Assembly: GCA_036785375.1 (NCBI GenBank)
Contig: JAWMAR010000323.1
Location: 2,108,001 to 2,172,000 of the forward strand
Direction: 5' to 3'
DNA from: Leucoraja ocellata
Lineage: Eukaryota
DNA length: 64,000 nt
Shown here one piece after another: positions 6,131 to 45,327 of this stretch (the first letter of the stretch is position 1; each line of letters starts with the position of its first letter). The notes under the pieces are model-generated. The model saw nothing but the letters and a program-made list of their open reading frames with translations, searched no databases and had not been told where the DNA came from. A program made the position numbers and the translations under genes.

Positions 6131-6372
6131 AATAGGCTTGCGTATAACCACACATTGCAGACAAATATTTGGTTGCTGGATGGTGAGGTGAGGTGAAAGG
6201 GAGTGCTTTTCTTCTCCTGCTGCATGGTAAAGTGCTGTGGGCGAAGCCATGAGTATTGGTTGAGTGTGAAACAGAACATCCTGGGGTGCATTTGGTATAT
6301 TGAGGAGAGTGGAAGATGTGCCTAGTGATGGCATCATGTTGAGGGATATTGAGGCCAACTGACTTACTTAAT

Positions 6373-6509
6373 CCTTCTTCTTGCGTATGGCATGCACAGC
6401 CTAAAGTTGTAAGACAACTTGTTCTGTTTGATCTTCTGTTTGTGCACGCCAGGTTGATTGCATTCGTTGAAACAGGGTGGACCACGTGAAGGTTGCAATC
6501 TCCCACCCC
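6373..6509 (-). mobile_element. 137-bp non-autonomous retroposon with HDV-like ribozyme head and (AAG)n tail
   Basis: Exact TSD ACTTACTTAAT at 6362-6372 and 6510-6520. 3' end ...GCCATACGCAAGAAGAAGG. 7-bp hairpin AAGTTGT-AAG-ACAACTT at 6404-6420. Confidence 0.85.
6456..6509 (-). ncRNA. Minimal HDV-like self-cleaving ribozyme (54 nt)
   Basis: Reverse complement GGGGUGG-GA-GAUUGCA-ACC-UUCACGU-GGU-CCACCCU-GUUUCAA-CGAA-UGCAAUC gives P1 (7 bp, G1-U wobble), P2 (7 bp), P3 (3 bp), L3 with U...CG, one P1.1 C-G pair and J4/2 CGAA carrying the catalytic C (6466). Confidence 0.85.
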
Positions 6510-6610
6510 ACTTACTTAATGCAAAATCATACGTGTTGGAAACTGAGGATGAGGGGAATAATATCCGAGTTCTTGGAATGCACAGGTATGACAGCAAAAA
6601 CAGGAAAGCT

Positions 6611-7179
6611 GGTTACACAAAAAAGCTGGAGAAACTCAGCGGGTGCAGCAGCATCTATGGAGCGAAGGAAATAGGCAACGTTTCGGGCCGAAACCCTTCT
6701 TCAGACTGATCGGGGGCGGGGGTGGGTGGGGACAAGAAAGGGAAAAGGAGGAGTAGCCAGAAGGCTGGGGGATGGGAGGAGACAGCAGGGGGGCTGAGGA
6801 AGGGGAGGAGACAGCAAGGACTAACAAAATTGGGAGAATTCGATGTTCATGCCCCCGGGGTGCAGACTCCCCATATTCCGTTTGGGGAGTCTGCACCCCG
6901 GGGGCATGAACATCGAATTCTCCCAATTTTGTTAGTCCTTGCTGTCTCCTCCCCTTCCTCAGCCCCCCTGCTGTCTCCTCCCATCCCCCAGCCTTCTGGC
7001 TACTCCTCCTTTTCCCTTTCTTGTCCCCACCCACCCCCGCCCCCGATCAGTCTGAAGAAGGGTTTCGGCCCGAAACGTTGCCTATTTCCTTCGCTCCATA
7101 GATGCTGCTGCACCCGCTGAGTTTCTCCAGCTTTTTTGTGTAACCTTCGATTCTCCAGCATCTGCAGTTCCCTCTTAAA
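6611..7179. mobile_element. Penelope-like fold-back insertion: perfect 263-bp inverted arms plus ~35-nt tail
   Basis: Arms 6611-6873 and 6883-7145 with a 9-nt spacer. Mirror ORFs 6636-7034(-) and 6722-7120(+). TSD AAACAGGAAAGCTGG at 6598-6612 and 7177-7191. Confidence 0.92.
7048..7083 (+). ncRNA. Minimal hammerhead-ribozyme-like core in the PLE 3' repeat
   Basis: CUGAAGA-A-GGGU(UUCG)GCCC-GAAACGUU: catalytic boxes, 4-bp stem II and palindromic ACGU stem III. Stem I pairing is weak. Confidence 0.55.
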
Positions 7180-18851: not shown

Positions 18852-18979
18852 TTAAGAGGGAACTGCAGATGCTGGAGAATCGAAGGTTACACAGAAAAGC
18901 TGGAGAAACTCAGCGGGTGCAGCAGCATCTATGGAGCGAAGGAAATAGGCAACGTTTCGGGCCGAAACCCTTCTTCAGA
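18852..18979 (-). mobile_element. Short Penelope-like 3' repeat insertion
   Basis: Near-identical to 7051-7179. TSD TGTGGTAT at 18844-18851 and 18980-18987. Confidence 0.88.
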
Positions 18980-25800: not shown

Positions 25801-26009
25801 CCATGGCAGGGATCCCACGACCTGAAACGTTGCCTATTTCCTTTGCTCCATAGATGCTTCCTCACCCGCTGAGTTCGACCACCGCTTCATCATTTTGCAC
25901 GTCATGCATGCATCAGCCACAGTCCTTCTGTAGGGTAACATTTACTTTTCCCCCCCACACTTAAGAATTAAATGATGAAGTTGGTGGCAATCAGGTCCTG
26001 ATTAGTTTA

Positions 26010-26104
26010 AGGTACACAAAAATGCTGGAGAAACTCAACGGGTGCAGCAGCATCTATGGAGCGAAGGAAGTAGGTAAAGTTTCGGGCCGAAACCCTTCTT
26101 CAGA
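26010..26104 (-). mobile_element. Penelope-like 3' repeat fragment
   Basis: Matches 6611-6705. Flanking duplication CTGATTAGTTTA at 25998-26009 and 26105-26116. Confidence 0.8.
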
Positions 26105-26109
26105 CTGAT

Positions 26110-41533: not shown

Positions 41534-44494
41534 AATTCTTTAACTTGGTAACTGTAATGTTTCTACTTGCAATATTAGTGGCAAGAAACCTTTGGACCAA
41601 ATGCTCTGGCTCAGTGCTTTATGAAAACAATCCCGATGCAGTTTGCTGGTTATTGGTATGTTTGTACTGAAATTAAAGATATACGTTATCAATGAGAAAG
41701 ATATACTTGTTATCAATGACATTAGCTATCTATCCTCACTACCATCACCTCACCATTCTTCCACAACGGATCCCTACTTCATTTTACACATTGTATATTT
41801 TCCTTCATGGTTTAGTGTTGAAGATATTTGCCTCTTGACTGTATTCACCCAAAGTATTAAGGGACAAATAAGCTTTTGTCTTCATGGAGACAAGTATGAT
41901 CATTGATCCGAATGAACTAATAAAAAGAGGGCAGCTTCTTGATAGTGCATGGAAGAGGGGGCTGACATTCTCTATCATGTGTGGAATTTACATTAACGCT
42001 TGTGATTAAAGATAAGTCATGCATGGCAGTATTTTATATATGGCCTCATTAGTGCAAGATAGATATCAGCTGGAAATTGGATTTCTGCACATAGATATAT
42101 CAGGGGCTTTCAAGCATGTTTAGATCTTCCGATATGCATCTGTAATTACAGAGAGAAAATGTGCCCTTGATCTTTGCTTGACTGCTCTGCCACTTGTATA
42201 TTTTGTATTAAAAAAACACTGGATTTGCATCATTTTCTCTCTATTTAACATTAAGGCAGTATGTTTCCTTTTTAGATTGATAAAGGTTTACTGCCCATGG
42301 CAATGAAAGGAAGAGAAAGACTTCATGAAAGAGAATGAGGGGTGACTTAACAGACATATGTAAAATTCTAAGCAGCCAATTTAGAGGGTAGTTAAGAGTC
42401 ACCGTCATTGCATGTGCAGAGGGATTTCAAATGGCTATTAAACCATGGTTTTAATGTTAGTATTACACATTTTTTTCATTTTTGATCATTTGTTGGTGAA
42501 TTAAGAAGCATCTAATTAGAGAAAAGCAAAGCTCATCAACCAGCTTGTTATGCAACAGGAGTTCTTGTCGTATGTGAATTTAATGCAAATTTCTGTGTAC
42601 CCACCTGTGTGTTTTTTGAAGGATTTGTTTTAAATGCAATTGCAATGCCTGGGGATCGTTTTTAAAATAGTGAAGATTAGGGCGGGGGCTTTCAGATGGT
42701 GGAGAAAGTTCTATTATTTCCACAAGAAATGTAGTTTTGTATCTATTCCAGGCAATTGTATATAATGGGTTTCCACTGCAGACATAACGGCATTAATATG
42801 AGAAGCTATTATGGTCTCGATAAATGTTGCAGCTTCCACAGAAATTGCATTTTGTCCTCTGTCAGTTTTGTGATTTTATACTTAAATATTTGATGTTCAT
42901 CCATTATATTTTAAAATGGTGAATAGTGTGGAAAGTGATAAATGTGTACAAAGGCTGCAATTATTATTCCATTAATCAAATCATCATTGAGATCTATATT
43001 TAAATGTCCTATCAAATTATCACAGCGCTGTGATGTGAATCTTTTGAATCAGGAAAAATTATGTATAACATTTTCCATTAATCATTGTACCTTTTGGCAT
43101 GGACAGGACTCTGTTCTATTAATAGTGCTAATCATTGCCAGAAGTATGAGCCTGAAGAAATATTATTAAGAAGTCTATCAGCTGGGTGAAGATTCTGGTC
43201 TTGAGAGGTTTCTCAAATGTAGCCTCTCTATTACACCAATGAATCAGTTATAAATGCCAGGAATAAAATCTCCATTTAGCATTCATACTCTGAAGTTCCC
43301 TATTCTGTTTCTGAATGCAATTGTGTTGCAGTTGCAATCGAGTTGTCCTTTGCAGTTCAATTCCCAACTGGCTTGAGACTTTTTCTTTTGTTAGCCAGAA
43401 GTGCTAACCTTAAAATAAATCCCTGGGGTGAAATTGCTGGAGTCCTGCGAAACACTGATTGAAGAAATGCACCAACTGTCAGGTTTGGGGCAAATCAATC
43501 ACCTCAAGTTTTTCATCATTTATCTTGCAGAATGTACCTGGGTCTGCAGTTCTACTGCTCTTGAGAGCAAATTTCCCTCATGAGTTATTAGGACATTTGA
43601 ATTAATGAGCTCGGTGCTTAGGGCTGAACCGTTTATAGAAATGGGAATCGGCATGCTGTGTGTTTCAAACAATTTATGTTGTGTCACTTTTATGAATGGG
43701 TTATTATTCTTATAAACTTAACAAAATCAATGCAATGCAGGTAAATTCAGAAGTATTTGTATTAAACTCAGTGAAAGCTGTCTTGTTCATTAAATCCACG
43801 TTCATTAAATCCACTTCCGTTGGTGTTGATTTCATTACCTCTGTTACAGCATTTCAGCATGTAGTGTTATCAATGCGTTCGTGCAAATTAACAGAATATT
43901 AATTTAACTATTAGTTGCAGCCATGACAGCCTTTACAGGTGGATTCTTCTTGATAGTGCTCAACTCAAATGTCATACAAAGCTGCATTTCAAAAGGCCAG
44001 GAATTTTTTGATTTCAAATTTTCTTTTTTACAAGGAAAGGGTTGCTCCAGCAGCCATGTCTCAGTACTGGAAGTTAAACAGAGCTAAGTATGTTTGACAG
44101 CATGTACCTTGTATTGTCCTTATACCTTCATGGCCTTGGGTTTGTGCTGTAACAAGTGCATGATGGCTCCGCATACAGCTGGAAAGATAAGCCAAAGATC
44201 ATTTGTTGCAACATAACTGCAGTCCCTAAAAACTGGCTGTGGAAGGCTGAGGGAGGAAATATTTGTTTCTTAATCCAGTAGGATTAGTTTAAAAAATATG
44301 TAGTAAATTTGAATTAATTTAATTTGGGTAAATCTAAATTGTTATCATCTGGAGGATTCAGATGGACTTTCTTTAAAACAAAAAGTCCCATCACACACAG
44401 AGCTTACTTTTGCCCATTTTGTCTATTTGCAGCATTAGATTGATGTGAAGAAGGGCTTTGTTTGCTTCCATACTACTAATTAGGCTTTTGATGT

Positions 44495-44678
44495 TTACAC
44501 AAAAAAGCTGGAGAAACTCAGCGGGTGCAGCAGCATCTATGGAGCGAAGGAAATAGGCAACGTTTCGGCCCGAAACGTTGCCTATTTCCTTCGCTCCATA
44601 GATGCTGCTGCACCCGCTGAGTTTCTCCAGCTTTTTTGTGTAACCTTCGATTCTCCAGCATCTGCAGTTCCCTCTTAA
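44495..44678. mobile_element. Penelope-like fold-back insertion: perfect 74-bp arms plus tail
   Basis: Arms 44495-44568 and 44570-44643 with a 1-nt spacer. TSD AGGCTTTTGATGTT at 44482-44495 and 44679-44692. Confidence 0.93.
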
Positions 44679-45233
44679 AGGCTTTTGATGTTACTGGCTA
44701 CAGGTTTGTGTACTTTGGTATTGATTGTGGGTTTCTGCATCTGAGATTTGTGGCTCTCGAGTTACACCTTGTTCCCTTGGTATGAAGAATAGACATGTGC
44801 CACAGTAACATATTTCCAGTTGTGTGTATATGTATCTATGCATGTGAGCGTGTGCGTTTGTATGTATGTGCGCAAACATGTATACTGCAGAAGGCACTTT
44901 ATTCATTGAATCCTGGCACGGAGCAAACCTCTTAACCAGGTGAAAACTGAGTTATGCCAGGAGGAGGAATGATCCTTTGGCTCTCTGAGGCAATGTGTAT
45001 ACATCCTTGCTGCTGTTCACCTCTCCTTCCCATCCATACAACAACTCCAACCGCATACCTTAAAATTTCTTTACTGGCTGCAATTGACCTCTGGCCTTTG
45101 TGATTTTGACATGTCTATTGCTGGCCAGCTACCTCTTTCTGCCATTTTTCTCAGTTAGAGTGGAATGCAAGAATGTCTCAGACTGATGACAATGAGCCAG
45201 AGCCGATGCCAATCTACAAGTGTTTGACTCCTT

Positions 45234-45327
45234 GGTTACACAAAAAAGCTGGAGAAACTCAGCGGGTGCAGCAGCATCTATGGAGCGAAGGAAATAGGCA
45301 ACGTTTCGGGCCGAAACCCTTCCTCAG
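45234..45327 (-). mobile_element. Penelope-like 3' repeat fragment (tail-less)
   Basis: Near-identical to 6611-6704, with CCTTG on both flanks. Confidence 0.85.

Follow-up and report, generated by a model that had tools for sequence, protein, structure and literature searches.

The 137-bp insertion at 6373-6509 of the window (the whole 64-kb stretch of Leucoraja ocellata DNA that was analysed) is very probably a short non-autonomous element derived from a Vingi-like LINE by internal deletion, with an RNA freed by a predicted HDV-like ribozyme inherited from that LINE and mobilised in trans. Copies of its family are composed of the two ends of the LINE, carry (AAG)n tails, are flanked by target-site duplications (TSDs) of ~9-14 bp, many of which begin with A or AG, and start at G1, the first base of the LINE-inherited fold. 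The original prediction had described a 'ribozyme SINE'; this was corrected, as the element is bipartite, arose from the LINE by internal deletion and inherited its putative ribozyme from the LINE 5' UTR.

Insertion boundaries and target site

The insertion and its flanking repeats were delimited as follows.

6373-6509, minus strand: whole insertion, a 137-bp bipartite non-autonomous Vingi-like retroposon (bounded by the TSD, supported by an empty site and related heads)
6510-6520, no strand: TSD arm abutting G1 (exact 11-bp repeat)
6362-6372, no strand: TSD arm after the tail (exact 11-bp repeat)

The exact 11-bp TSD, which had been said to place the 5' end of the insertion on G1, was confirmed, and an empty site in sequencing run X20 agrees with it: one contig joins 6361 to 6510, omitting 148 bases (137 + 11; 11 ambiguous letters). 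Since this empty-site contig has only four flank differences among those listed, the 137-bp insertion is recent. A second version of the insertion with identical flanks lies 135 kb away on the contig (L010, C323:2249581-2249717); its catalytic C is altered (C-to-U), and the locus is an allele, a duplication or an assembly artefact.

The element has the hairpin of 7 bp and the tail, (AAG)3, that had been reported for it, and the reported absence of Pol III boxes held, with none of the 64 A-box consensus matches in the window falling inside the element. The head is LINE-derived, rather than a tRNA-, 7SL- or 5S-derived head with an A box as in a Pol III SINE, and no tRNA was detected in the 64-kb window. 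No host exon was recognised by eye among the 46 window ORFs.

A P4-less HDV-like fold at the 5' end

The minus-strand parse from 6509 was re-read against the sequence and proved correct in every coordinate, giving the following parts.

6456-6509, minus strand: 54-nt HDV-like ribozyme fold lacking P4, with cleavage predicted at the 6510/6509 junction (descriptor, covariation in relatives, theta comparison)
6503-6509, minus strand: P1 5' strand, partner 6474-6480 (G1·U plus 6 Watson-Crick pairs)
6494-6500, minus strand: P2 5' strand, 7 bp, partner 6456-6462 (sequence parse, descriptor)
6481-6493, minus strand: P3-L3-P3 core, with P3 6493-6491 pairing with 6483-6481 and L3 of 7 nt (descriptor; 12 of 13 letters equal those of a phage theta row)
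6467-6473, minus strand: P1.1 3' side (G, U) and a 5-nt linker replacing P4 (descriptor; P4 sits here in relatives)
6463-6466, minus strand: J4/2, presumed catalytic C at 6466 (descriptor)

These parts make up the nested double pseudoknot of P1, P2, P3 and P1.1 with a G1·Y pair that characterises HDV-like ribozymes, with a J1/2 of 2 nt and a P1.1 consisting of a single C-G beside U·U. The presumed catalytic C (C6466) opens J4/2 and is followed by N-R-A, as in HDV-like ribozymes, and a C occupies this position in all five related families. The loss of P4 proposed earlier stands, the wording 'almost absent' being too weak, as P4 is absent outright with the 5-nt linker in its place.

A self-written descriptor, applied in strict and relaxed form to both strands, returned 6456-6509 as its single match in the window, which upholds the HDV-like fold proposed at the element head. 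The relaxed form returned 3 matches altogether in 40 dinucleotide-shuffled windows, and with the catalytic base swapped the descriptor gave one unrelated match. The nested folding energy of the head is ordinary (z -0.57 and +0.29, pseudoknots lying outside this model). Rfam gave no match at gathering score in the window and three weak, irrelevant ones near the element, so that no HDV-type model recognises 6456-6509; since these models are sequence-specific, the miss is compatible with an HDV-like fold. Predictions for the sequence just upstream of this copy give pairing with J4/2-P2 at 0.67 (fourth highest of 83 loci, median 0.24), an extension of P1, and competition with P2 and P1.1, so that the native flank would be expected to slow cleavage.

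Copy number and 5' ends across the family

The 41-nt head has at least 3,357 matches at ≤1 mismatch in the 3.44-Gb assembly (control, 0), a count that includes haplotype duplicates, since loci with identical flanks occur twice (L001/L010, L002/L008, L004/L005). Identity is 98-100% among the best 40 copies and 80-98% among head-selected copies, and family copies are present in all four sequencing runs, from four organisms. With TSDs, repeat tails and many dispersed copies, the family has the genomic features of SIDEs.

For analysis of 5' ends, 83 distinct loci were assembled from three sets, two picked for an intact start and the third (29 loci) via an internal 22-mer, with the first 32 nt unused. 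Of the 83 loci, 56 had a TSD; in 29 the arm abuts G1 exactly, in 41 it stops no more than 1 nt away, and 64 loci of this selected sample satisfied the descriptor. In the internal-22-mer set, 28 of 29 loci align from ≤3 nt of G1, the remaining one being 5'-truncated; loci chosen independently of the head start thus bear out the placement of the insertion 5' end at G1. The genome-wide check of copy number, TSDs and G1 pile-up that had been proposed therefore came out in favour, with thousands of heads and 5' ends converging on G1. The flanks upstream of G1 are unrelated, no shared sequence being seen there across the examined copies. Tail-selected loci include 5'-truncated short copies, and at L061/L062 a TSD-flanked 80-bp form consists of the ribozyme fold and ~24 nt of tail.

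Parent LINE and origin by internal deletion

Alignment to the LINE resolved the element into three segments, and a further structure spans its 3' part.

6431-6509, minus strand: 5'-end segment of the Vingi-like LINE (75/80 aligned columns identical to L218)
6418-6430, minus strand: 13-nt junction matching neither LINE end directly (comparison with LINE)
6374-6417, minus strand: LINE 3'-end segment with final codons, stop codon (6401-6403), short 3' UTR and (AAG)3 at 6374-6382 (alignment to LINE)
6388-6451, minus strand: 3' RNA structure, an 11-bp helix (6441-6451 with 6388-6398) around a 7-bp hairpin (6404-6420) (folding z -2.57)

The 137-bp element is accordingly made of ~79 nt of LINE 5' end, 13 nt of junction, which reads like a short local duplication, and 44 nt of LINE 3' end; like a SIDE, it contains only the two ends of an identified LINE and no ORF. 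Differing deletion junctions among the short copies, down to the 80-bp form, indicate that internal deletion occurred repeatedly. Stability equal to that of the 3' structure was reached by 4 of 200 shuffles. Two subfamily-versus-LINE changes (6449-6451 with 6388-6390) each convert mismatches to pairs in the 11-bp helix, and the helix carrying them ties the 5'-derived to the 3'-derived part of the element.

Searching from the head side returned 162 matches, of which 30 loci and 17 longer regions were read, and yielded short variants only. A tail search excluding the usual upstream letters gave 46 matches, and 3 of the 30 read (L114, L115, L136) have a coding remnant before the tail. This remnant has 1,061 candidates, ~90% alike, ending in the last 44 nt of the element including the stop codon; walking upstream from it led through RT and APE domains to the same ribozyme head. 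The proposed search for a long LINE sharing both ends thus succeeded: L209, a near-full-length copy, extends over 2,769 bp, G1 through tail, within a TSD, its ORF beginning ~110 nt after G1. The one ORF of the parent LINE encodes APE and RT domains and, C-terminally, a Cys/His motif. Of 20 LINE heads, 4 match the first five letters precisely from G1 onwards, in 7 the differences are confined to the first 1-3 nt, and 9 are without 5-12 nt at the start, often at inversion joints. In many LINE copies, head and body lie in opposite orientations, a twin-priming-like arrangement (L185, L190, L199, L213, L218, L220, L221, L223).

No intact driver LINE was found among 150 scored of 93,190 RT candidates, every LINE copy seen being broken. 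The closest intact protein (P0001, 1,019 aa, APE and RT, without RNase H) is 73% identical to a decayed genome copy; the intact 1,019-aa relative is also represented by P0121 and P0122, and the next matches to the genome copy reach at most 64%. RNase H was present in the control L138 and absent from the intact relatives P0001 and P0012. The parent has the layout given for Vingi in the available text of PMC13708176 (compact single ORF, APE and RT, without RNase H), with the absence of RNase H judged on P0001 and P0012. In an RT tree with few outgroups, from which the window CR1-like row (no match) was left out, the LINE pairs with P0001 (100/99) inside a 28-row clade of compact elements (99/99) that includes L267. 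Since this tree contained no named Vingi or Ingi proteins, membership of the parent LINE in the Vingi clade is likely rather than proven. Mobilisation in trans by a Vingi/Ingi- or RTE-type LINE had been suggested; the partner found is Vingi-like, and the RTE option was dropped.

Intact two-ORF LINEs with RNase H were considered as drivers in a PF14529 search, and were rejected, as none of the 13 examined shares sequence with the element. Four of this kind in the genome (L138, L142-L144) encode 1,246-1,268 aa and have (GAA)n tails. For a second RT family, 50-53% related, four 1.2-kb upstream windows showed neither the fold nor a clear element start, so that the missing fold carries no weight there. 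Viral contigs contained no Vingi relatives and lacked the element 20-mer, and a PDB search returned only L1, R2 and group II RTs.

The fold in distant relatives and possible signs of selection

Among 80 metagenome loci of related LINEs, 19 have sequence upstream of the N-terminal match. The descriptor matched in 7 of these 19 distant Vingi-like loci (5 families), always in sense orientation and with the first matched codon 157-384 nt downstream, and gave no match in the 12 other 5' zones; in the other 299,878 bases it gave none for any of the four catalytic letters, and three non-C matches in the relatives are alternative parses of the C-bearing sites. Every matching relative (5/5 families) has a P4 region of 16-26 nt. 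A similar fold was seen by eye only in L229, L230, L238 and L241, that of L230 lying upstream of the ORF and having a long L3 insertion. By eye, the 5' end of Vingi-2_Gav, as given in the available part of the PMC5786205 supplement, can be parsed into this fold, L3 letters included, and resembles L267.

Across six rows, 12 of 18 pairs differ on both sides, a number equalled in 0 of 500 shuffles, although the rows were picked by a descriptor that demands pairing (partly circular) and two of them are misaligned. The check for compensatory changes that had been proposed was in this way borne out among distant Vingi-like relatives, with descriptor-chosen rows; the position of the fold upstream of the ORF is a control independent of this circularity.

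Within the fold, X20 shows four variants above 20%, which lie in J1/2, at a P1 wobble, in the linker and at the base that follows the catalytic C, all tolerant sites; by rough estimate, such placement of all four would occur by chance in a few percent of cases. At the catalytic CpG, C-to-U occurs in at least 584 genome matches and the neighbouring G-to-A in 1,364, C-to-U being 2.3-fold rarer, whereas the L3 CpG is symmetric (4.8 versus 4.7%). These counts fit source elements that tolerate G-to-A but not C-to-U, the G-to-A excess could also come from one lucky source lineage, and the sequences give no sign of hosts favouring ribozyme inactivation.

RNA reads and alternative explanations

RNA reads came from X24, a poly(A) run from another organism of which 6% was read and whose strandedness is unrecorded. 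No pile-up of starts is listed at G1, and nowhere do many molecules begin; 280 listed reads run across G1 into the flank, and at G1 depth drops equally for both orientations. The result lends no support to frequent cleavage at G1, and is itself weak because poly(A) RNA favours copies that escaped cutting and because the library strandedness is not on record. Orientation counts were ~234 versus 342 over the fold, 124 versus 281 over the 3' half and 1,188 versus 1,314 for the neighbouring repeat. This bias would agree with sense depletion in the case of a stranded library alone, and it was not counted as evidence.

The neighbouring repeat (6611-7145) consists of a short repeat duplicated in inverted orientation with near-perfect agreement (98.7%), and more copies of it lie at 18885-18979, 26009-26109, 44492-44645 and 45233-45327; its X24 depth is ~1,200 per orientation, and it has no Rfam match. 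Its segment 6672-6705, minus strand, reads like what we take to be a minimal Penelope-type hammerhead core.

In the proposed mechanism, a source copy would be transcribed by Pol II, via read-through or its own promoter. The 54-nt double pseudoknot would then cut 5' of G1, C6466 acting as the general acid, and leave an RNA of unit length that still bears the ribozyme. The APE/RT protein of a Vingi element would bind the 3' end of this RNA in trans and carry out target-primed reverse transcription, with priming probably helped by the AAG tail. P4, kept in relatives, would have been lost in this lineage, and selection would act on source elements alone while dispersed copies decay.

A possible though doubtful alternative keeps the same origin and attributes the 5' end chiefly to an internal Pol II promoter whose start lies at G1, with the ribozyme as a slow back-up or merely sharing the sequence. 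It has a precedent in Pr77, the first 77 nt of L1Tc in the sister clade, which are both promoter and ribozyme (PMC3383444, available text), and it would suit the dispersal of copies among unrelated flanks and the lack of a cleavage signal in X24; a promoter alone, however, would not preserve nested pseudoknot pairing through unrelated helix sequences. The promoter and the ribozyme-based origin favoured here can coexist.

It is unlikely that the P4-less fold is no more than the inactive remnant of a ribozyme of ancestral Vingi elements and that the short family spread because its shortness allowed full copying from any carrier RNA. All five related families keep P4, the inactivating C-to-U is found in the 584 or more matches given above, among them L010, the twin of this locus, and X24 reads cross G1; yet without a cut or start at G1 the upstream flank of the source would be carried along, and none is shared, lineage-level changes spare the core of the fold, and P4-less ribozymes of similar size are active (preprint). 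Chance pairing within an ordinary SINE head, which the near-zero nested-folding z-scores and the Rfam miss would allow, is highly improbable and largely refuted by the scarcity of matches in shuffled windows (3 in 40), the fall of the insertion end on G1 and the same fold at the same place in distant relatives.

Comparison with known systems

The comparisons below follow the available text of the cited sources. The derivation from a Vingi-like LINE favoured here has close parallels in NARTc/RIME (from L1Tc/ingi) and the R2 SIDEs, which likewise arose by internal deletion, carry a 5' HDV-like ribozyme cutting before +1 (PMC3383444, PMC4035085, PMC6765202; predicted here) and keep a short parental 3' end; NARTc shares 77 nt at the 5' and 30 nt at the 3' end with L1Tc (PMC3383444, PMC4035085). 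The present element differs from these in its Vingi-like parent without RNase H, its length (137 versus 263 nt), the absence of P4, its (AAG)n tail and its location in a large animal genome. Vingi-1_EE derivatives, SINE2-1_ACar and SINE2-1_AMi are also bipartite, internally deleted Vingi elements (PMC5786205), but the SINE2-1 families have tRNA heads, whereas the 137-bp element has none.

In structure, the element resembles theta ribozymes. A gut-phage theta row has segment lengths of 7-2-7-3-7-3-7-2-6-4-7, compared with 7-2-7-3-7-3-7-2-5-4-7 here; both lack P4, 12 of 13 core letters are equal, the element linker is one nt shorter, and P1.1 has two G-C pairs in the theta row but one C-G and U·U in the element. 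Minimal and theta ribozymes are reported almost only from phages, often beside tRNAs (PMC10879173), whereas the element is a retroposon in a window without a tRNA; 6456-6509 thus shares the absence of P4 with them but not the phage context. In the same source, ~99% of minimal HDV-like ribozymes are in Caudoviricetes, its eukaryote set being human, mouse and protists. Convergence is a plausible cause of the likeness. Four theta ribozymes cleave in vitro (preprint), and fast cleavage is compatible with a non-canonical P1.1 (PMC13635239).

Novelty and implications

The bipartite-LINE kind of element is known, and the freeing of retroposon RNA by a ribozyme has been known for long. In the available text of the literature searched (scope excluding Repbase, Dfam and patents), no ribozyme assigned to Vingi was found, nor such an element in cartilaginous fishes or a P4-less ribozyme in animal repeats; within it, the predicted Vingi ribozyme and the predicted minimal fold in an animal repeat are new. 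Ribozyme-bearing clades given in PMC5786205, in its available text, are R1, R2, R4, RTE, Ingi as well as LOA, with Vingi unlisted.

A broader reading, put forward tentatively and at somewhat short of even confidence, is that the Vingi clade sets its 5' ends by an unrecognised HDV-like ribozyme, here shrunk to an active 54-nt theta-sized enzyme with thousands of intact copies, of which sense ones would cleave the transcripts of the host and influence where the family can persist. If this is true, Vingi UTRs in gene-writing platforms may self-cleave; those of Vingi-1_Acar serve in gene-insertion platforms (PMC13708176, available text), and a self-cleaving 5' UTR, if present there, would bear on template design. 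P4-less HDV-like ribozymes have been almost phage-only until now (PMC10879173, available text); the predicted fold adds one candidate from a retroposon of an animal, which has relatives that carry P4 and natural variants by the thousand. ORF-less bipartite elements are made by RTE, Ingi, R2 and Vingi, of which RTE, Ingi and R2 have ribozymes, and the cause was left open (PMC5786205, available text). The predicted Vingi ribozyme would fill this gap and make the cause testable, and, if the broader reading is true, all four clades known for such elements would have a ribozyme.
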